Positions 2,050-15,639 of a stretch of 31,192 nucleotides of DNA are shown one piece after another; within the stretch, counting starts at the first letter, position 1, and every line of letters starts with the position of its first letter. The DNA comes from a virus, in UHGV virus genome UHGV-0019120; one strand, given 5' to 3'. The translations under genes were made by a program, and so were the position numbers. The notes under the pieces were generated by a model that did no database searches, was not told the origin of the DNA, and saw nothing but the letters and a program-made list of their open reading frames with translations.

Positions 2050-3117
2050 TCAGGCTTTCAATAGCGATTCTTTTAGATATCGGGCATCAGCCAGGGCGTT
2101 TGGAGTAATCTTGCGAACCCATGCATTACGGGTTGGACTCCACTTAAAGGCGCGTGATTTAAGCAGCGAACGAATGTTTGCCTCTGGTTTGCCAGGGAAA
2201 TAAAACAGGATGCGGTTATCCTCTGGATCTATCTCCATAGAAAAGCCGTCGTATTCTTCGCGCTGTGCTCCTGTTACAGACTTGACCGATTCAAGCTCCT
2301 TAATACGGCTCTGTAGTCGTTTGATTTCGGCGTTATTGTTGCTCAGTGCGTATGAAGGGAATCCGATGCGCCCACAGAAATCTCCGGCCAGTAACTCTTT
2401 GGCTTCGCTTTCTGTAAACCTGAGATCGATTAATGCAGAAAGCTGCTGTATTTGGTCTTTTTTGTATTTGCGAATGGCCTTATTTGCGGCCTTCATTTTG
2501 ACGTGTGACTTCATGCAGCCTTGCAGCTTACGAAGCAACTTAAATAGCGCATCAGGATCATCAGACGAAATTCCATTACGACCAACACCTGCGGCTTTGC
2601 TCTCGTAGTGTGATGCTTTACTTTCGCATTCAACAAACGCTTTTCTGAATAACGCATCAGCTTTAGACAAACGGCGGCGATGGCCTTTCGCGCTATAATG
2701 GTCAACTAAAATCGGCTGGCCTAACGGGATCACATCCAACAGGTCATGCGCTCGCTTATGCGCTACCGCACCTTCTTTTCTGGCTTTTTCTGCACAAGCA
2801 ATATATCGGGCAAGACGCGCGTTCTGGCGTTCCTGATAGGTGTTTACGTAATCATCTCCGCGCTGCTGCTGTTCAAGCCATGCTTTGCGCAGATCTTCTG
2901 TTACGTCCACCAGCTCCGCAGGGATACAACCAGTTTGGGCTTCATAAGAGTAACCATCCTCATAGATACGCCCATCGTCTTCAACAAAGAAAAAGGTTTC
3001 GTGCTCATCGCTTTTGACCATACGACCATTAACATGGCGTAATAGGTAGCCAGTATCAGTGCTTAACAGGCTGTTAGGGTTGTTGATCCAGTCAGAAATA
3101 ATTACTTGTTTATTCAT
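2050..3117 (-). CDS. hypothetical protein, possibly DUF3560-like
   Basis: ORF track gives 373 aa to 3171; I place the start at ATG 3117 (MNKQVI...) because a GGAG RBS lies about 6 nt upstream and the duplicated promoter block begins at 3124. C-terminal FYFPGKP...FKWSP...W motif recalls DUF3560; unverified. Confidence 0.5.
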   Translation of the reverse strand: MNKQVIISDWINNPNSLLSTDTGYLLRHVNGRMVKSDEHETFFFVEDDGRIYEDGYSYEAQTGCIPAELVDVTEDLRKAWLEQQQRGDDYVNTYQERQNARLARYIACAEKARKEGAVAHKRAHDLLDVIPLGQPILVDHYSAKGHRRRLSKADALFRKAFVECESKASHYESKAAGVGRNGISSDDPDALFKLLRKLQGCMKSHVKMKAANKAIRKYKKDQIQQLSALIDLRFTESEAKELLAGDFCGRIGFPSYALSNNNAEIKRLQSRIKELESVKSVTGAQREEYDGFSMEIDPEDNRILFYFPGKPEANIRSLLKSRAFKWSPTRNAWVRKITPNALADARYLKESLLKA

Positions 3118-3123
3118 CAGATT

Positions 3124-3225
3124 TCTCCGGTTTAACCAGGGCGGGTATCGCTCGGTTTCGGGTATAACCATAGGAAATTTTTTCCCACCTGTAAAGCACT
3201 TTTTATATAAATCTATAATTATATA
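3124..3225. repeat. 102-bp promoter/leader block, copy A
   Basis: 101/102 identical to 11972..12073. Read on the minus strand it contains an AT-rich upstream element, TTTACA-N17-TATGGT promoter, short leader and GGAG RBS. Confidence 0.9.
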
Positions 3226-3286
3226 TTTATAGATTTTCGATGTTCCCGATGTCTACACACCATCAAAACAGCTCAAAATGACACTT

Positions 3287-3664
3287 TTACTCTCTTCGCT
3301 TTTTCAAATAGTCGACAACATACGCCCTGGCTTTTGCCAGCTTCCGGCGATACTGTCTGAGGCTAAGAGAAAGGGCGTGGGCTTTATCAATATGCGGTGC
3401 ATTTATGTCGAGGCCCCGAATCTCCCACGCCCCGTATTCAATTCGGACAACCAGCGCCGCAGTCTCATCAACTACCGTGAGGGCCGTCACCGCTCCCTCT
3501 ATACTGGTTTCCAGTGAGTCATTTGGTGCGCCGCCCCCTCCGGTAAACTGGCAGCGCGTAACCATCATCATTTCTAACATCGACGCGAAACCGCTACGGG
3601 CGTTGCAGCCATTGCGCACCCACAGCGCCCATAGCTCAAACAAGCTATCCAGATCGCGTCTCAC
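3287..3664 (-). CDS. putative Q-like late antiterminator
   Basis: 125 aa; N-terminus MRRDLDSLFELWALW and basic C-terminus resemble what I recall of E. coli prophage Q homologues (Phage_antitermQ-like); last gene of the minus-strand early-type operon. Confidence 0.45.
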   Translation of the reverse strand: MRRDLDSLFELWALWVRNGCNARSGFASMLEMMMVTRCQFTGGGGAPNDSLETSIEGAVTALTVVDETAALVVRIEYGAWEIRGLDINAPHIDKAHALSLSLRQYRRKLAKARAYVVDYLKKRRE

Positions 3665-5811: not shown

Positions 5812-6468
5812 ATGAAAAGCAACGACGAGAACATCAAGAAAGAAATAGGTCTGCGCATTCAGACTCTACGGAAACAATCCGGCATGACTGCCGGAGATCT
5901 CCAGCAAGTCACTGGAATAGGCTTAAGCACCTTGCAGAACTATGAGGCCGGATTAAGACAACCATCTATACCTGCCATCAAGAAAATCGCGCACGCCCTG
6001 AAAGCATCAGCGCCTTATATCGCGTGCTTAACAGATAACCCGTTCCCACCCCAGAATACTAACGCTCCTGTTATTCCTGGGCTTGTAGCTATAAAAAATG
6101 ACATAGCATCGCACGCCGGAGAAAAGCCAGTGCTGGCGATAGAACAGGAGATTCTACGAAGCAAGAACATCAACCCATCGTCTCTGTCAGTTCTCCAGAG
6201 CAACGATGAGTTAATGTCACCAACAATATCCCCAGGCTCCCAAGTCCTGATTAATACAGACGATACAGAGATTCATGAGGGGATCTATGCCCTTGAAGAC
6301 AGAAATGGCCTGGTTGTTTTGAGGCACTGTAGAGTCATACCGGGTGACAATGCTGTTATGCTGTCAACCGAAAGGGATGCTGAAATGAACACTAAGCATC
6401 TGAATAACGAGGAATTTAAGCGTTATAAAGTTCTTGGCCGCGTAGTTAGTGTTGTCAACTGGTTATGA
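5812..6468 (+). CDS. CI/LexA-type prophage repressor (HTH_XRE plus S24-like C-terminal domain)
   Basis: 218 aa; N-terminal HTH (LRKQSGMTAGDLQQVTGIGLSTLQNYEAG), C-terminal LMSPTISPGSQVLIN and FKRYK...GRVVSVVNWL resembling the LexA/CI Ser-Lys autocleavage domain. Confidence 0.75.
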   Translation: MKSNDENIKKEIGLRIQTLRKQSGMTAGDLQQVTGIGLSTLQNYEAGLRQPSIPAIKKIAHALKASAPYIACLTDNPFPPQNTNAPVIPGLVAIKNDIASHAGEKPVLAIEQEILRSKNINPSSLSVLQSNDELMSPTISPGSQVLINTDDTEIHEGIYALEDRNGLVVLRHCRVIPGDNAVMLSTERDAEMNTKHLNNEEFKRYKVLGRVVSVVNWL

Positions 6469-6939: not shown

Positions 6940-6959
6940 AAGCGGGCTAACGCCCGCTT
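6940..6959 (+). terminator. hairpin after the 124-aa ORF
   Basis: AAGCGGGC-TAAC-GCCCGCTT stem-loop; downstream tract only moderately T-rich. Confidence 0.4.
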
Positions 6960-6960
6960 A

Positions 6961-7062
6961 TATGATTATAGATTTATATAATTATATAAAACGCTTTTCA
7001 TCAGCCAAAAAGTTGGTTATGCTTACCTCGTTCTATAAATATAGATTTATAGAATTATATAA
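6961..7062. promoter_or_regulatory. centromere-like / operator repeat arrays upstream of parA
   Basis: Two AT-rich blocks (6961-6988, 7033-7062) carrying TATAGATTT / TATAGAATT 9-mers, partly as direct copies offset by 8 bp. Confidence 0.5.
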
Positions 7063-7085: not shown

Positions 7086-7739
7086 ATGACTATCTCTGTA
7101 GGTATTTTCAACGGAAAAGGCGGCGTAACCAAATCAACAATTGCCCGTGCTTTAGCAGTTGCTTATGCAAAGGCTGGCTGGAATGTATGCCTGATCGATA
7201 TGGATGTGCTTAACGGAACGGTAACGCGTTGGGTACAACGCAGAATGGCCAACAATATCGAACCAGCAATCGCGGCGCAGCCGTGCGGCACACCATCACA
7301 AGTCCAGAAAATCATCGAATCAGAAGTATACGACCTGGTTATCGTCGATGGCGGTGCCTACGCATCTGAATCAGTACCGAAGCTATCTGAATTTCTGGAT
7401 ATGGTTATTTTGCCAACCCGATTCTCTACCGATGACCTGGAAACCACCGTTAACACTGCTCACGGCATCGTTAAAAAGGGTGTACCAATCAAGAAAATTT
7501 GCATGGTGTTTTCCGGCGCGGCTGAAAACGAAGCTGACTATATTGAAGCCCAAGAGTACCTGGCTAATACGCCATACTTTGTTGTCGATAAGTACATTCC
7601 CCACAAGCCAGCTCTGAGCAAAGCTCAGGATAAGGGCTTAAGCCTCATTGAGTGCTCATACGTTGCGCCACGCAAAAAGGCAGACGACGTTATTCAGGGG
7701 ATTATCAACCAGCTTGAGGCTCTGACTACTGCCGCATAA
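7086..7739 (+). CDS. parA: ParA/ParF-type partition ATPase
   Basis: Deviant Walker A FNGKGGVTKST, A-prime motif VCLIDMD, B-like DLVIVDGGA; start placed at ATG 7086 (GGAG RBS) rather than track start 7071. Confidence 0.8.
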   Translation: MTISVGIFNGKGGVTKSTIARALAVAYAKAGWNVCLIDMDVLNGTVTRWVQRRMANNIEPAIAAQPCGTPSQVQKIIESEVYDLVIVDGGAYASESVPKLSEFLDMVILPTRFSTDDLETTVNTAHGIVKKGVPIKKICMVFSGAAENEADYIEAQEYLANTPYFVVDKYIPHKPALSKAQDKGLSLIECSYVAPRKKADDVIQGIINQLEALTTAA

Positions 7740-7770
7740 TATATAATTATAGTTTTATAGATTTATATAA
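7737..7770. promoter_or_regulatory. TATAG(T/A)TTT repeat block upstream of the RHH gene
   Basis: TATAGTTTT and TATAGATTT direct copies offset 8 bp, between parA stop and the next start. Confidence 0.45.
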
Positions 7771-7782
7771 GAGGGGATACAC

Positions 7783-8252: not shown

Positions 8253-8276
8253 TAAAAAAGGCCCCCGAAGGGGCCT
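8253..8276 (-). terminator. intrinsic terminator for the minus-strand small gene
   Basis: GGCCCC-CGAA-GGGGCC hairpin; A6 on the plus strand gives a U-run on the minus strand. Confidence 0.55.
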
Positions 8277-8281
8277 AATCG

Positions 8282-8404
8282 CTACTTGCTGCTAATGTTT
8301 ATCGTCACATTCAGAGCGTTATCAGTAATCTTCCAACCCTCCCCATGTGGCGTAAACAAAGCCCCAGTAACAACGATAAAAATACACATACAGTATTTTT
8401 TCAT
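8282..8404 (-). CDS. small hydrophobic peptide (about 40 aa)
   Basis: MKKYCMCIFIVVTGALF... with AAGGG RBS and own terminator; track ORF 8282..8464 is longer. Confidence 0.3.
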   Translation of the reverse strand: MKKYCMCIFIVVTGALFTPHGEGWKITDNALNVTINISSK

Positions 8405-8802
8405 TGTATGGCCCTTACAGGCCGTTTCACGGCATCCCCACCGACGAAAACAACGCGAGAGCAAGCACGGCTGCTTGTGCTTGCATGTACGGCAACGGAG
8501 AATCCTCCCCTAAAGTCGGTGCCCGGGTGCGAATCGGCGGGAAGGTCCACAGGTATTTTACGATTATTTTAAGATTAGTAATAGGAAAGAAATTAAACGA
8601 AAAAACTCGTTTATTTTCACAAAATCAGTAACCTACCCACAATCTGTGAGTTTGCAGGCACAACAAGAACCACAATTTTTTGAAGCATAATAGTGGACTA
8701 TTATTACCTTTTGGGTAAAATTAACTTGCTGCTTGTGCTTGCGTGGTTGTTTATACAACGACGTTATGCTGAAAGGACCGCGAATCCGATCAGCACGAAA
8801 GA

Positions 8803-8828
8803 ACCGTCCTCAATAGGGCGGTTTTTTT
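8803..8828 (+). terminator. intrinsic terminator within the non-coding region
   Basis: ACCGTCCT-CAAT-AGGGCGGT stem (one G-U wobble) followed by T7. Confidence 0.5.
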
Positions 8829-8883
8829 GTTTCTGCCTACCAATAAACCCACGCTATGTGGTTGTCTCTGTTAAAATCCCGCC

Positions 8884-8994
8884 GTATTGACATGAATGCG
8901 CCATTGGTGGACACTTTCCGAGCCGTAGCAAAATCTACGGTCGGGATTGGAACCCCGTAGACACAATGGCGCATACCGCGTTAGCGGTTTTTTT
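8884..8994 (+). ncRNA. candidate structured small RNA (c4-like antisense regulator)
   Basis: Extended -10 TGtTAAAAT near 8866-8874; 9-bp outer stem 8898-8906/8964-8972 enclosing two hairpins, one with loop ATTGGAAC; ends at short hairpin plus T7 (8975-8994). No ORF. Confidence 0.35.
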
Positions 8995-9160
8995 ATGCGT
9001 AAAGCACTGCTACACCCAAATTATGGTGGGGCGTGCGGGGGAGTCGTAAGACTCGCCGGTTCGTCATTGTGTCCGGTAGTTCCAACCCTGCACGTCTCAC
9101 CACCCAATGATTGGAACCTGACGGTGGTGAGTATCCTTAACCTTTAAGGGAATCATCACA

Positions 9161-9352
9161 ATGACAAACCTACCCCATGACTATTACGTCAACCTCGTAA
9201 AGATCCTTCTCAAGAAAGCCTCATACGCCGATAAATTCCGCCTGGCTGAAATCATCGAGCGCGAAGCTATGCGCATCGCCAGCAACGATAACGCTGTTTC
9301 TGACGCAAAAATCTCCCTCGTAACCAAAGTAGTTATGGGAGGTGCAAAATGA
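9161..9352 (+). CDS. small protein translationally coupled to the antirepressor (icd-like position)
   Basis: 63 aa; AAGGGA RBS; stop overlaps start of the next gene (ATGA-type overlap at 9349-9352). Confidence 0.4.
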   Translation: MTNLPHDYYVNLVKILLKKASYADKFRLAEIIEREAMRIASNDNAVSDAKISLVTKVVMGGAK

Positions 9353-10494
9353 AAACGCTTCCGACCGTTAACACCCTACAGCCTATCCTGCATAACCAAA
9401 TCCCTGTCATTACTACCGAGTTACTAGCACAGCTTTACGGCACTGAGCCGGTGCGTATTCGCCAGAATCATCATGAGAACAAAGCACGTTTCGTTGAAGG
9501 GAAACACTTTTTCAAAGTTGTTGGTAATGACCTTAAAGAATTGCGGGTAGCTTTAAACTACTCTCAAAATCCAGTTTCACCTAAAGTCCGCTCCCTCATC
9601 CTCTGGACAGAACGCGGGGCTGCACGTCACGCTAAAATGCTCGAAACCGATCAGGCGTGGGATGTATTCGAACGGCTGGAAGACTGCTACTTCAACCAGA
9701 ACGCGCAAACGGCCGCGACCGTAACCGTCTCACCAAACAATGCTCGTGAGGTTGTCGATACGCTCAACGCTAAACCAATGTATTACGTTAAGGTGTGCAA
9801 CAACGAGCCACTCACAACCTCAGCCGATGTTGCCCAGGCATTCAGCACCACAAACAATTCCATCGTTATGGCCATCGATGCGTTACGCATTCCTCGCACA
9901 GCTGCGGCGCGTCACTTCTTTAAAGAACAACGACCGCTGGAAGGAAGCGACCGCGAAATAACAATCTATCGCATGACAAAAGACGGATTTACCTTGCTCA
10001 TGGAAAGTATCGACGGTCCAGGCGTGAAGGATATCAAGCTGGCCTACATTGAAGCCTTTAACGCTATCAGCAGCATGTTAAAGGCAGAATACGAGCGAAT
10101 GCTATACAACCGACTGTATCAGGAAACAAAGATTATCCGAACGGCAACAGAACATCATCGGCTATTAACGGAACCAAACTACCGCAAGACACTAATCAAA
10201 GAGTTTGACAAGGCGACGGAGAAAACTAAAGCGGCACTAAATCTACCAACAATGACTAAAGATGATGTGATATCAGCCTTACTTCTTGATCTGCTCAGAA
10301 ACGTCAGAGCACTTATCAGTTTTGACGAAAACCTGAATCCTCAGCTCAAGCTACTACCACCGACAGGCAAAGTAGTCGACCAGGCTGATCACAACAGCAT
10401 ACTCAGCGTTCTGGATGCAAACCTGCCAGCCAGGACACTACAGGATCTGATAAAAACATGTGCTGATAAGCTGGCACAGAAAAGCAGACCATAA
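9349..10494 (+). CDS. phage antirepressor / regulatory protein (ORF6N-like plus Rha-like domains)
   Basis: 381 aa; N-terminal ITTELLAQLYG...EGKHFF...ILWTERGAARHAKMLETDQAWDVFERLEDCYF resembles ORF6N; central TTSADVAQAF...YRMTKDGFTLLM...IEAFN resembles Rha. Confidence 0.7.
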   Translation: MKTLPTVNTLQPILHNQIPVITTELLAQLYGTEPVRIRQNHHENKARFVEGKHFFKVVGNDLKELRVALNYSQNPVSPKVRSLILWTERGAARHAKMLETDQAWDVFERLEDCYFNQNAQTAATVTVSPNNAREVVDTLNAKPMYYVKVCNNEPLTTSADVAQAFSTTNNSIVMAIDALRIPRTAAARHFFKEQRPLEGSDREITIYRMTKDGFTLLMESIDGPGVKDIKLAYIEAFNAISSMLKAEYERMLYNRLYQETKIIRTATEHHRLLTEPNYRKTLIKEFDKATEKTKAALNLPTMTKDDVISALLLDLLRNVRALISFDENLNPQLKLLPPTGKVVDQADHNSILSVLDANLPARTLQDLIKTCADKLAQKSRP

Positions 10495-10693: not shown

Positions 10694-11230
10694 AATTCCA
10701 CCATAACCGATAGCCACCCTTCAGACACAACCCCCCCTCCCCCCATACAGGGTGTCCTTTACCGGAGTTCCGGCCCCTTCTCAAAAGCATCAAAAAAAGC
10801 TCGAGATCGAGTACCGGAACTCATGCCACCAGATAGCTCCACATCGTTTCCAATGCTTCGCCGCCGTGTGCGCCCTGTGGCCCACAATCATGCCATTGGT
10901 CGTCTGATATACCTTCTTCTGCTCATTGAGCACAGGCGAGTTGTCGCACTCCTGCCTTTCTCAGACTCGACTTAGTTTAGATCGCTGTTCCTGGCTTGCG
11001 TCAGCACACTTTCCCCTTGTACGCATACCCGCGCGCCACTCCGCCCAAAAACACCGAACCCAACGAAGTGGCAAAGACAACGACGCGAGCGTGAGTCTGA
11101 AACAGGCACCAGTAAAAAAGGGGTTGCAGGCGCAAAAAGATTTGATTATCTTTAGACGCAAGAAAGCCGCCCCAATCAAGAGGTGTCTTTTTAAATCCAG
11201 CCTACCAAGCAAGATTTAAATTTCAGACTG

Positions 11231-11256
11231 AAAACCGCCCGGCAAGGCGGTTTTTG
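11231..11256. terminator. bidirectional intrinsic terminator
   Basis: AAACCGCC-CGGCAA-GGCGGTTT stem flanked by A4 upstream and T5 downstream. Confidence 0.6.
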
Positions 11257-11583
11257 TCTTTCTGGCGCTTACATTACACCACCATAAAACGATCCGTAAA
11301 GGATCATTTGATCCCTTGTTCCAATTCTGACGACACTTTAACCTTTTCCCATACAAGGGTTTGCAGCCTTAACAGAATCGCATCTTTATCAAGGTGTGAA
11401 AGATCCTTAACCATATCGTCAAACGACAGAACGCGAATGGCCATCTCAATGACCCTCGGCGGCTCGCTCCTGCGTCCAGTTCATCCCACGACGCCATAAT
11501 TTCAATTCATAACCCGTCATAGCATCCTCCTCGCACAATATTAACACTCGCAAAGTGTCAAAATGACACTTTGCGTATTGTGT

Positions 11584-11964
11584 TTACTTAACGAGGAATA
11601 AAAATGGTTTATTGTTCGGCGGTGTAATCGGGGCTGGCTCGCTTTTGCTCATGCGATCAGTGTACCAGGCCAGCTCCTTGTCAAAGTAAGCCTGATTAAA
11701 ATAGGCCATGAATGTAGTTTCAAATCCATAACGACCGCTAATACGCAGCATCTGATTGCCGTTCTCTGTTTCCAGATATACCTGGGCACGTTCCTGATTC
11801 TCCTTCAGCCAGGTTAAAGCCTCATCGCACGAGGACACACGATACTCATCATCGTAGCCGTCATCGATGCGGCTTGAAGAAGAACGGCAAATCACGCCGA
11901 CAGAACCAGCCAGGATAGTTTGAATTTTAAGGAAAGCGTTTTTGCGGATTTTAATCATGCTCAT
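11584..11964 (-). CDS. hypothetical protein expressed from promoter block copy B
   Basis: 126 aa; GGAG RBS; immediately downstream of repeat copy B; followed by a 27-bp perfect palindrome (11549-11575). Confidence 0.5.
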   Translation of the reverse strand: MSMIKIRKNAFLKIQTILAGSVGVICRSSSSRIDDGYDDEYRVSSCDEALTWLKENQERAQVYLETENGNQMLRISGRYGFETTFMAYFNQAYFDKELAWYTDRMSKSEPAPITPPNNKPFLFLVK

Positions 11965-11971
11965 CGGGTTA

Positions 11972-12073
11972 TCTCCGGTTTAACCAGGGCGGGTATCGCT
12001 CGGTTTCGGGTATAACCATAGGAAATTTTTTCCTACCTGTAAAGCACTTTTTATATAAATCTATAATTATATA
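11972..12073. repeat. 102-bp promoter/leader block, copy B
   Basis: Single mismatch relative to 3124..3225 (CCTACC vs CCCACC). Confidence 0.9.
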
Positions 12074-12231
12074 AATAATAGTGACTGGTGCTTTTTTAGG
12101 CTTCACATTAAACATTTTTGTTTAGCTTATTGGCAAGGTCTTGAAAAAGACATTTCAGCAATGGTATACCATTGAACATGGTATCGGCTGAATTTTACAA
12201 TTAACACATTTTAAACAATTGGAGGTGCAAA

Positions 12232-14658: not shown

Positions 14659-15639
14659 TTAATGTTGGAGTGATTTCCAGGTCTTTCTTAACCTGTTATA
14701 ACGCTGCTCAACGAGGGATCGTAAATATGCAAGGTCAGCTCCAGGATACATGCCATCAGCAAATTCCTGGCTAACCTCTCTAGTGATTTGATGACGAAGT
14801 TCGGCCTCTCCCTTTTCCCGAACAAGACGCGCAGCTCTCTCCGCTGCTTTCTGTTTTGCCTTTATCTCTCTGGCCGTCTTCCTCTGACGCCATACATTCT
14901 CCATCTGCTCCTGAATAACAATACGCTTATAATCAGCCTCCGTTATCGCTTTTTTAAGCCGTTCGCTATTCCTCGCATTGAAGTAATTAAGTTTCTGGCT
15001 AACCGCACGTCTCCATGCTTGTTCAGTAATACCAACGGTTTCCAGCAGTTGATCACGAATCTCTATTTTCGCAGGCCAATACTGTTTATTCACCCGATCC
15101 CAGCGACGTTCATAATCAATAAAACCTAACGCTTTCAGTTGCGACAACGCCCTTGTACAGCGCGTTATAGACTTGTTCCCAGCTTCGGATACGGTAGACA
15201 GGCCGCAAAAATCAGACAACGCCTCAGCACTGGCCAGAACCCGCTTAGAAATGATGTTTACATGGTACAACATCGCAGCAATCAGAGCATTAAACGCCCG
15301 ACGACGATGTTCGTTTATCCGGCGTTTCCGCTCTGACGGTTGATTAACGTAGAACGCAACCTCACACGTAAGATCACGACCATTAATGCGCTGTAAAGCA
15401 TCAGATAACACCAGCGGCAGCTTGTGCGTATGGCGCTTTGGAGGCTGGAACTCCGGCGACAAATTACAAACGTAAGCTGAACGTAGAGACGGCATTGGTC
15501 TATCCATATGTTCGCTCTTGCGTCCACGGAAAACCAACGTATAATGGGAGTTGTCGAGGCGCCCATGGATTGTTGTTGTTGGTTTTCCGTGGATGTCGCA
15601 AGAAGCCCGCAGATTTATCTGCGGGCTTTTTGTTTCCAT
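14659..15639 (-). CDS. repA: IncFII-type plasmid replication initiator RepA
   Basis: Central LSTVSEAGNKSITRCTRALSQLKALGFIDY closely parallels R100/R1 RepA1 as I recall it; Arg/Lys-rich coiled C-terminus also similar. Start uncertain: ATG 15639 or internal ATG 15507. Confidence 0.75.
   Translation of the reverse strand: METKSPQINLRASCDIHGKPTTTIHGRLDNSHYTLVFRGRKSEHMDRPMPSLRSAYVCNLSPEFQPPKRHTHKLPLVLSDALQRINGRDLTCEVAFYVNQPSERKRRINEHRRRAFNALIAAMLYHVNIISKRVLASAEALSDFCGLSTVSEAGNKSITRCTRALSQLKALGFIDYERRWDRVNKQYWPAKIEIRDQLLETVGITEQAWRRAVSQKLNYFNARNSERLKKAITEADYKRIVIQEQMENVWRQRKTAREIKAKQKAAERAARLVREKGEAELRHQITREVSQEFADGMYPGADLAYLRSLVEQRYNRLRKTWKSLQH
15520..15635 (+). ncRNA. candidate antisense copy-control RNA (CopA-like) opposite the repA 5' region
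   Basis: 15-17-bp perfect inverted repeat (15524-15538 / 15578-15592) then a strong plus-strand intrinsic terminator (15603-15632); no plus-strand coding potential. Promoter not identified. Confidence 0.35.

Follow-up and report, generated by a model that had tools for sequence, protein, structure and literature searches.

An inverted repeat upstream of a small Xre-type HTH gene is probably its autorepression operator in an E. coli phage-plasmid

Introduction

What does a 27-nucleotide inverted repeat do that lies between two minus-strand genes of a phage-related element from E. coli? The repeat occupies positions 11549-11575 of the virus genome UHGV-0019120, analysed here as one stretch of 31,192 nucleotides (termed “the window”). 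The initial annotation, which was made from the sequence alone, described the site as a perfect palindrome directly past a stop codon, linked it to a second, partial copy elsewhere in the window and favoured a protein-binding or RNA element over a simple terminator. In this study we compare the repeat and its surroundings across related phages, plasmids and metagenomic contigs, and we propose that it probably serves as the autorepression operator of the downstream minus-strand gene, which codes for a 90-aa HTH protein. Readings that treat the repeat as an RNA element, as one of two linked sites, as a structural DNA element or as a terminator are weighed against this proposal.

The phage-plasmid and the layout around the repeat

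The window region is 100% identical to plasmid pPRO_A-1505-6W-A_3, a 47,904-bp circle from an E. coli isolate. A further 70 or so E. coli plasmids (46-49 kb) are 95-99% identical, nearly all of them typed as non-mobilizable, and close kin are also found among the Yersinia phages vB_YpM_39, vB_YpM_41 and vB_YpM_44. The element encodes myovirus-type head and tail genes together with an IncFII-type RepA, ParA, a CI-like S24 repressor and an ORF6N/Rha antirepressor, and this combination identifies the approximately 48-kb element as a phage-plasmid. The features that matter for the present analysis are compiled in Table 1.

Table 1. Features of the window discussed in the text (positions refer to the whole stretch; a dot denotes no strand)
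Feature	Positions	Strand	Remarks
Site 2	3273..3287	-	15-mer in common with the inverted repeat, minus strand AAAGTGTCATTTTGA; read as remnant of a lost gene
CI-like S24 repressor	5812..6468
Antirepressor with C4/isrK RNAs	8922-10494
GC-rich hairpin	11229..11256	.	T/A runs on both sides; directly past the HTH gene
Remnant of the 90-aa Xre-type HTH gene	11304..11520	-	Start codon 11520..11518; compared with the intact gene L001:12405-12677(-)
Shine-Dalgarno sequence GAGGAGG of the HTH gene	11526..11532	-	Sequence and aligned purine-rich block
Extended -10, predicted, TGT-TAATAT	11538..11546	-	Invariant in alignment A2
Inverted repeat, proposed HTH operator	11549..11575	.	Sequence, excess over chance, conserved core
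126-aa gene, PHROG 8090	11584..11964	-	Function unknown; transcribed from promoter block B toward the inverted repeat
Promoter block copy B	11968..12075	-	TTTACA-17-TATGGT (12043..12015), AT-rich repeat motif and 5' UTR
repA	14659..15639	-	About 3 kb from the inverted repeat (replication region)

As initially annotated, the repeat adjoins the stop of the 126-aa gene; it begins 8 nt past the stop codon (11584-11586), and on the minus strand a gap of 28 nt separates it from the start codon of the HTH gene, of which it lies upstream. The 126-aa protein has no match in Pfam, NCBIfam or PADLOC and no toxin-family match. The PADLOC search for defence systems returned no matches, and a defence-system assignment was dropped on this ground. 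On the far side of the HTH gene, the GC-rich hairpin is likely a bidirectional terminator that closes the HTH unit. The minus-strand gene at 3287..3664 had been labelled “Q-like”, a label that finds no backing: the gene has no Pfam match and belongs to PHROG 5285, of unknown function, and its product reaches 21 bits with the NCBIfam family PA0613, which is far below the cutoff of 100.

Two further features of the window were recorded. The AT-rich motif TTATATAAATCTATAATTATATAA and its variants are present at six intergenic places (1978-2017, 3203-3234, 6958-6989, 7031-7062, 7739-7778 and 12049-12076), including both promoter blocks and both sides of parA, and may be sites at which another regulator acts, either as a common operator or in the manner of a centromere. 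Moreover, Rfam matches above the gathering score comprise ryfA (8254-8550, minus strand), isrK (8922-8994, plus strand) and the C4 antisense RNA (9019-9107, plus strand). The latter two are located just upstream of the ORF6N/Rha antirepressor gene (9349..10494), an arrangement like that of immI in P1/P7.

Sequence of the repeat and odds against chance

The repeat reads CGCAAAGTGTCA-AAA-TGACACTTTGCG, with two fully complementary arms of 12 nt and a spacer of 3 nt. The perfection that had been ascribed to a 27-bp palindrome thus holds for the arms; strict palindromy is ruled out, since the central AAA is not self-complementary, and the element is a perfect inverted repeat with a spacer (below also called the palindrome or the dyad). 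Its conserved core, AAAGTGTCA-N3-TGACACTTT, spans positions 11552-11572.

Perfect inverted repeats with arms of at least 12 nt and a spacer of at most 10 nt were observed twice in the window, against 0.027 expected from vectorised order-1 Markov simulations. The sole other repeat with perfect 12-bp arms, AAGCCCGCAGAT-TT-ATCTGCGGGCTT at 15603-15628, is followed by TTTTGTTT on the plus strand and lies within the first codons of repA on the minus strand. This second repeat has the appearance of a terminator for an antisense, CopA-like RNA of the IncFII-type replicon.

The HTH gene, broken in the window and intact elsewhere

The HTH gene downstream of the palindrome is disrupted in the window by a deletion of 56 bp between two 10-bp direct repeats, TCGGCGGCTC, the surviving copy of which is at 11456-11465. 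The deletion shifts the frame, such that 24 aa are followed by a stop, and a leftover ORF of 46 aa is all that PGAP annotates at this position. An intact copy of the gene is found in the Yersinia phages, including vB_YpM_41 (L001 in Table 1), and the other 19 listed E. coli records contain about 56 bp more at the position of the deletion. Since the HTH gene is inactivated in the window plasmid, the operator proposed here is probably orphaned and unoccupied in this plasmid.

Many independent frameshifted or truncated alleles of the HTH gene are also found among its homologues (P0013, P0016, P0025, P0029, P0031, P0043 and P0044). These broken alleles cluster at a G5 run and GCCGCC repeat that encodes the peptide EKGEPPR, which suggests either recurrent inactivation or homopolymer assembly errors.

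The intact protein of vB_YpM_41 carries an Xre-type domain, as it matches PF01381 (HTH_3) with 29.8 bits at a cutoff of 23 and HTH_31 with 27.6 bits at a cutoff of 27. The closest named families are RstR, MqsA and HipB, all of which remain sub-threshold; the best named match is NCBIfam RstR, likewise sub-threshold, with an E-value of 2.6e-8. RstR, MqsA and HipB are autorepressors that bind palindromes. The best sequence match in the PDB, to the HTH domain of MqsA, is weak (E = 0.06).

An AlphaFold model of the HTH protein is all-helical and comprises five helices, with a mean pLDDT of 75. A long C-terminal helix that extends beyond the HTH bundle in this model could serve dimerisation. A fold search of the model against the PDB returned SinR, Aca1, P2 C, HigA, HipB and 434 Cro, all as weak matches (best E = 0.17); these neighbours are Xre/Cro-type repressors and consistent with, yet not diagnostic of, the Xre class. 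The HTH family is small, as it forms 44 clusters at 90% identity, all of them enterobacterial, and it appears to be uncharacterised.

Some HTH homologues adjoin cargo of defence or anti-defence type (AcrVA2-like, AAA_15/21, Mrr). As a separate observation, the invariant C-terminal peptide of the HTH protein, EKVKVSSEL, is encoded by DNA that contains a half-site about 200-240 bp downstream of the operator. This half-site reads AAAGTGTCG at window positions 11331-11339 (minus strand), and in L071 (7488) the exact sequence AAAGTGTCA is present.

The dyad is retained with the HTH gene

All 10 IMG/VR loci that encode the HTH protein contain the dyad upstream of its gene, nine of them exactly and one with a single mismatch. 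About 12 further homologues with 45-76% identity harbour related dyads, the half-sites of which are often changed symmetrically, with T to C in one arm and A to G in the other. In every homologue checked that has its own upstream region, a related dyad is present at the HTH promoter, with the consensus GTG(T/C/A)CA-N3-TG(A/G)CA(C/T). The length of the spacer is kept, and its sequence varies. The half-site changes accompany substitutions in the predicted recognition helix, which reads SLATYKR versus GLRTYKR, CLRSYKD or SMRTYIR.

Particularly informative are the relatives whose HTH proteins are 68-76% identical (L070, L041/L071, L042 and L072). There, the core AAAGTGTCA-N3-TGACACTTT is kept at the same distance from the ATG, and the flanks have diverged. 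In two of these loci, L042 and L072, the upstream DNA is entirely different and the 126-aa gene is absent, and the dyad is still found at the same distance from the ATG. The dyad therefore goes with the HTH gene and not with the gene upstream. In an alignment of five variants from this range of protein identity (alignment A2), the intergenic region is invariant in the columns GTGTCA, TGA.ACTTT and TG.TA...T; beyond the core of the palindrome and the extended -10, only isolated single positions are invariant. The motif search across relatives that the initial annotation had suggested thus reveals a core that is conserved upstream of the HTH gene in divergent relatives.

The more distant homologues (45-66% identity) stem from Serratia, Lelliottia, Scandinavium, Pseudescherichia, Erwinia, Providencia and metagenomes. 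Their dyads are AAAGTGCCA-ATT-TGGCACTTT, AAAGTGCC-ATATC-GGCACTTT, AAGTGCA-N5-TGCACTT, ATATGACA-AAT-TGGCATAT, AAAGTGCCA-AAA-TGACACTTT and AAAGTGACA-TAA-TGACATTTT, and they are positioned directly after, or overlap with, a -10-like hexamer (TATAAT, TATGCT or TAAAAT). The dyads of several homologues are imperfect in a manner that would break a hairpin. In L073 the HTH gene is part of an operon, and an imperfect related dyad is located in the intergenic region upstream of this operon; in L075 there is no dyad directly upstream of the HTH gene. All-against-all BLAST of the neighbouring genes detected none in common across the loci, the 45-66% homologues likewise having no neighbouring gene in common with the window, and a conserved partner gene for the HTH gene, be it toxin or cargo, was rejected on this basis. 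Taken together, dyad and HTH gene co-occur and co-vary across homologues in different genetic contexts.

The outer arms of the dyad are symmetric with different sequences in three lineages, namely CGC/GCG, ATGCTC/GAGCAT and TGCGC/ACGCA. Selection for a hairpin would be compatible with such re-symmetrisation, too.

In the whole 47.9-kb plasmid, the only exact half-site outside the palindrome is the one at site 2, which is discussed below. The 21-bp pattern AAAGTGTCA-N3-TGACACTTT is also present in about 20 unrelated viral contigs of IMG/VR (e.g., L006, L017, L023, L029 and L031). Searches with phmmer (E<=10) found no HTH homologue within 700 bp of the pattern in these contigs, and the idea that they encode one was rejected. 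The 21-bp motif is consequently not exclusive to the HTH family. Two contigs, L028 and L030, contain four copies each, and some contigs feature adjacent tandem half-sites, such as repeats of AGAAAATGACACTTT. A literature search did not find the motif as a bacterial binding site; the matches were primers and shRNA sequences. A paper on Yersinia phage HQ103 was set aside, as it concerns an unrelated 32-kb phage.

A predicted promoter and a model of autorepression

In five variants the signature TGnTAnnnT occurs just downstream of the dyad and at a fixed distance from it, which places the dyad at the predicted promoter of the HTH gene itself. For the window, this promoter (P_hth) is predicted to comprise the extended -10 element TGT-TAATAT at 11546..11538, and transcription would start near 11531, about 7 nt downstream of the -10. 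The palindrome would then extend from about -44 to -18, with its centre near -31, where a -35 element would fall. A scan for sigma-70 promoters makes no call at P_hth, because there is no -35/-10 pair with a spacing of 16-18 nt.

The palindrome is, in our judgement, probably the autorepression operator of the 90-aa HTH gene. The dyad is conserved in sequence, tolerates asymmetry and keeps a fixed relation to promoter elements; this combination argues for an operator, and the pattern is unlike that of a structural RNA or DNA hairpin. The earlier preference for a protein-binding site over a simple terminator is borne out in that the sequence is conserved, and not merely its pairing, the dyad follows the HTH gene and not the upstream gene, and it overlaps promoter elements.

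In the proposed mechanism, a dimer of the HTH protein would bind the two GTGTCA half-sites with the 3-bp spacer between them. The occupied dyad would cover the -35 region of the extended -10 promoter and keep RNA polymerase off, and by excluding the polymerase the HTH protein would limit its own synthesis, i.e., exert negative autoregulation. The bound dimer might also act as a roadblock to read-through transcription from promoter block B and the 126-aa gene. Binding by the HTH protein, repression and the transcription start are what we infer from the sequence. The regulatory geometry is not uniform across the family, since the dyad is positioned upstream of the -10 in the close group and downstream of it in the distant homologues.

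An extended version of the model, which we regard as unlikely, would assign the dyad a dual use. The DNA form would serve the HTH gene as its operator, and the hairpin formed in the read-through mRNA would be a target of the HTH protein or of RNases, which would insulate the output of the HTH gene (and of the cargo) in an Aca2-like DNA-plus-RNA circuit; being palindromic, the site would at the same time be a mutational hotspot, where inversions of the spacer, insertions and deletions repeatedly switch the regulator off in natural phage-plasmids.

Alternative readings

An RNA element had been considered from the outset. According to this explanation, the palindrome would form an intercistronic hairpin in the mRNA that reads through from the 126-aa gene, where it would stabilise or process the transcript, hide the ribosome-binding site of the HTH gene, which would make HTH translation dependent on the upstream ORF, or be bound as RNA by the HTH protein. 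The minus-strand sequence 11500-11600 indeed folds at -34.8 kcal/mol (z = -5.5), with an apex hairpin flanked by a UUCCUCG:CGAGGAGG pairing. Extended hairpins are also predicted for L070 and L042 from different outer sequences, and the one-sided change in L041/L071 (C to T) still permits a G-U pair. However, most of the fold energy of the region comes from the dyad itself, and the folds of L071 and L072 are no better than those of shuffled sequences (z = -0.95 and -1.47). The core is kept by sequence and not by compensatory change, and the core mismatches of five distant homologues break pairs. Furthermore, the predicted P_hth transcripts would not include the palindrome. In all five variants, pairing of the Shine-Dalgarno sequence was no higher than with shuffled 5' flanks (a fraction of 0.12-0.79 of the shuffles reached the observed value), and sequestration of this sequence or translational coupling was dropped for this reason. 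A whole-window search with cmscan yielded no Rfam match at the palindrome, the only hits being ryfA, isrK and C4, all at 8254-9107, and a known RNA family was rejected accordingly. The RNA alternative of the initial annotation thus gains no specific support from Rfam or from Shine-Dalgarno pairing, and we consider it rather improbable.

A second explanation builds on the recurrence of half of the palindrome between the gene at 3287..3664 and promoter block copy A (3114-3225). One and the same factor would bind the palindrome and this second site (site 2) and thereby link the control of the duplicated promoter cassettes. The recurrence as such is real: the 14-mer CAAAATGACACTTT is found exactly at 3274-3287, one position short of the end at 3288 given before, and the identity with the palindrome extends to 15 nt, TCAAAATGACACTTT at 3273-3287. 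Given the palindrome, 0.001-0.002 exact 15-mer recurrences are expected per window (analytic expectation). By our own arithmetic, a 31-kb sequence should contain about one chance pair of identical 15-mers, whatever their sequence, and the recurrence is therefore notable only because the palindrome is involved. The two sites share a strand and an intergenic location, each directly past a stop codon; site 2 overlaps that of 3287..3664 by one base and lies upstream of promoter block copy A. As mentioned, site 2 is the only other exact half-site of the 47.9-kb plasmid.

Several findings speak against a partner operator. On the minus strand, site 2 reads TAA-AAGTGTCATTTTGA-GCTGTTTTG, which corresponds to one half-site, the spacer and only 5 of the 9 bases of the other half-site. 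Site 2 is kept only in relatives of about 99% identity. The 68-92% relatives examined have a gene of 146-152 aa at this position, between the homologue of 3287..3664 and a DUF3560 gene, and no half-site there. Among them are the 68-76% relatives, in which HTH gene and palindrome are both retained, and the notion of a second shared element finds no support there. Within the 146-152-aa gene, an internal coding segment aligns with GTCATTTTGAGCTGTTT of the window, at a score reached by 0-1 of 2000 shuffles. The aligned coding segment is GTCATTTTGAGCTATTT in L070 and TCATTTTGAGCTATTT in L071 and L072, and AAAAGGTCATTTTGA is already present in the coding DNA of the relatives. The E. coli lineage lacks the gene; among plasmids, tblastn detected it only in three Salmonella relatives, along with one distant match in a Pseudomonas plasmid (41% identity). 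Both promoter blocks are ancient and occur in relatives without site 2. Because site 2 is absent from divergent relatives and aligns with a coding segment of the gene lost there, we read it as a remnant: judged by these alignments, it is probably the relic of a gene deletion with a chance likeness to a half-site and not a partner operator. A two-site system is hence improbable.

Thirdly, the palindrome might act mainly as a hairpin or cruciform, that is, as a hotspot of recombination and insertion or as a replication-related site rather than as the site of a regulator. The spacer is inverted (AAA versus TTT) between the near-identical L038 and L040, three different rearrangements (an element with terminal inverted repeats (TIRs), an ORF cassette and the deletion in the window) map at most 30 bp away on the HTH side, and the outer arms have been re-symmetrised with different sequences. 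Yet, a structural role leaves unexplained the strict tie to one HTH family in unrelated contexts as well as the fixed distance to the -10 element, and the plasmid replication region is about 3 kb away. We deem this explanation very improbable; the spacer inversion, the re-symmetrised arms and the nearby rearrangements look like side-effects of a palindromic operator.

The rearrangements themselves are as follows. L040 and L007 differ in the spacer from L038 and all other close relatives, with sequences that are otherwise near-identical, and the inversion resembles a hairpin-templated switch. A MITE-like element of 318 bp in the Yersinia phages (L001 12681-12998 in vB_YpM_41), with 38-bp TIRs that are 92% complementary and a 5-bp target duplication (GCTAT), separates the Shine-Dalgarno sequence of the HTH gene from its ATG. 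The insertion in L038/L040 (2404-3000) measures about 570 bp and carries a 141-aa ORF that runs on the opposite strand; this cassette follows directly on the TAATAT -10 and parts the palindrome from the HTH gene.

Finally, a role as Rho-independent terminator of the 126-aa gene can practically be discarded: a hairpin with a 12-bp stem and 6 G-C pairs does lie 8 nt past the stop, but the minus-strand stem is followed by AGUGUUAAUAUUGUG and not by a U-run, as noted initially and correct for this sense strand, a consensus scan reports only the antisense plus strand (tail TATTGTGTTT), the dyad persists where the 126-aa gene is absent, and the likely terminator at 11229-11256, a proper GC-rich one, comes after the HTH gene. 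The site 11549-11575 accordingly lacks the combination of a G+C-rich stem and a U-run on the transcribed strand that characterises intrinsic terminators, and the terminator was rejected because the sense strand has no U-run and the element persists without the upstream gene.

Comparison with known regulator-operator systems

Judged by sequence, the dyad and the HTH protein are a member of the general class of Xre-type HTH regulators with palindromic operators; they do not belong to the MqsA family and probably not to the Aca family. The dyad would have the mode of action known from MqsA, HipB, Aca and Cro-type operators.

MqsA binds the palindrome 5'-AACCT-N3-AGGTT-3' in the mqsRA promoter (PMC4894380). 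The system described here resembles MqsA in the Xre-type HTH, in a dyad that has a 3-bp spacer and is placed at the promoter of the regulator gene itself, and in the expected autorepression. Unlike MqsA, the HTH protein has neither an N-terminal zinc-binding domain nor an MqsR-like toxin partner, the half-site differs, and the dyad is located between two genes instead of upstream of a pair. The protein also falls outside the MqsA family by score, with 25.4 bits for TIGR03830 at a cutoff of 61.8, and its 90 aa start directly with the HTH.

Aca2 of phage ZF40 is an HTH autorepressor of a phage accessory operon (PMC6765145). Common to Aca-type regulators and the present system are small HTH dimers (proposed for the present protein), encoded last in a short operon of a mobile element, and promoter-overlapping inverted repeats that are conserved across the regulator loci; moreover, Aca1 (structures 7c0g/7vjn) is among the top fold neighbours of the HTH model, albeit a weak one. 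In contrast to Aca systems, no anti-CRISPR gene was identified here, the 126-aa protein being without a match in Pfam, PHROG functions, NCBIfam or PADLOC, and the dyad lies after the 126-aa cargo gene and not before it. Neither by sequence nor by fold does the HTH protein match any Aca family significantly.

With repressors of the Cro/CI and RstR types (434 Cro, P2 C and RstR of CTXphi), the system shares the HTH_3 fold class and a (proposed) dyad operator that overlaps promoter elements. It differs from them in that the HTH gene is situated away from the lysis-lysogeny switch and is associated with a single operator and not with an array of sites.

Conclusions

The practical value of the analysis is mainly negative, in that the two-site link between the duplicated cassettes is best regarded as a probable relic of gene loss, which leaves no network to pursue. 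The proposed arrangement is an ordinary one, and the understanding of such autoregulatory circuits is unchanged. If the operator reading is correct, it would provide the cognate operator for an uncharacterised small HTH family restricted to enterobacterial phage-plasmids and related islands. It would also define a testable pair of regulator and site, for which the window plasmid carries a null allele of the regulator.
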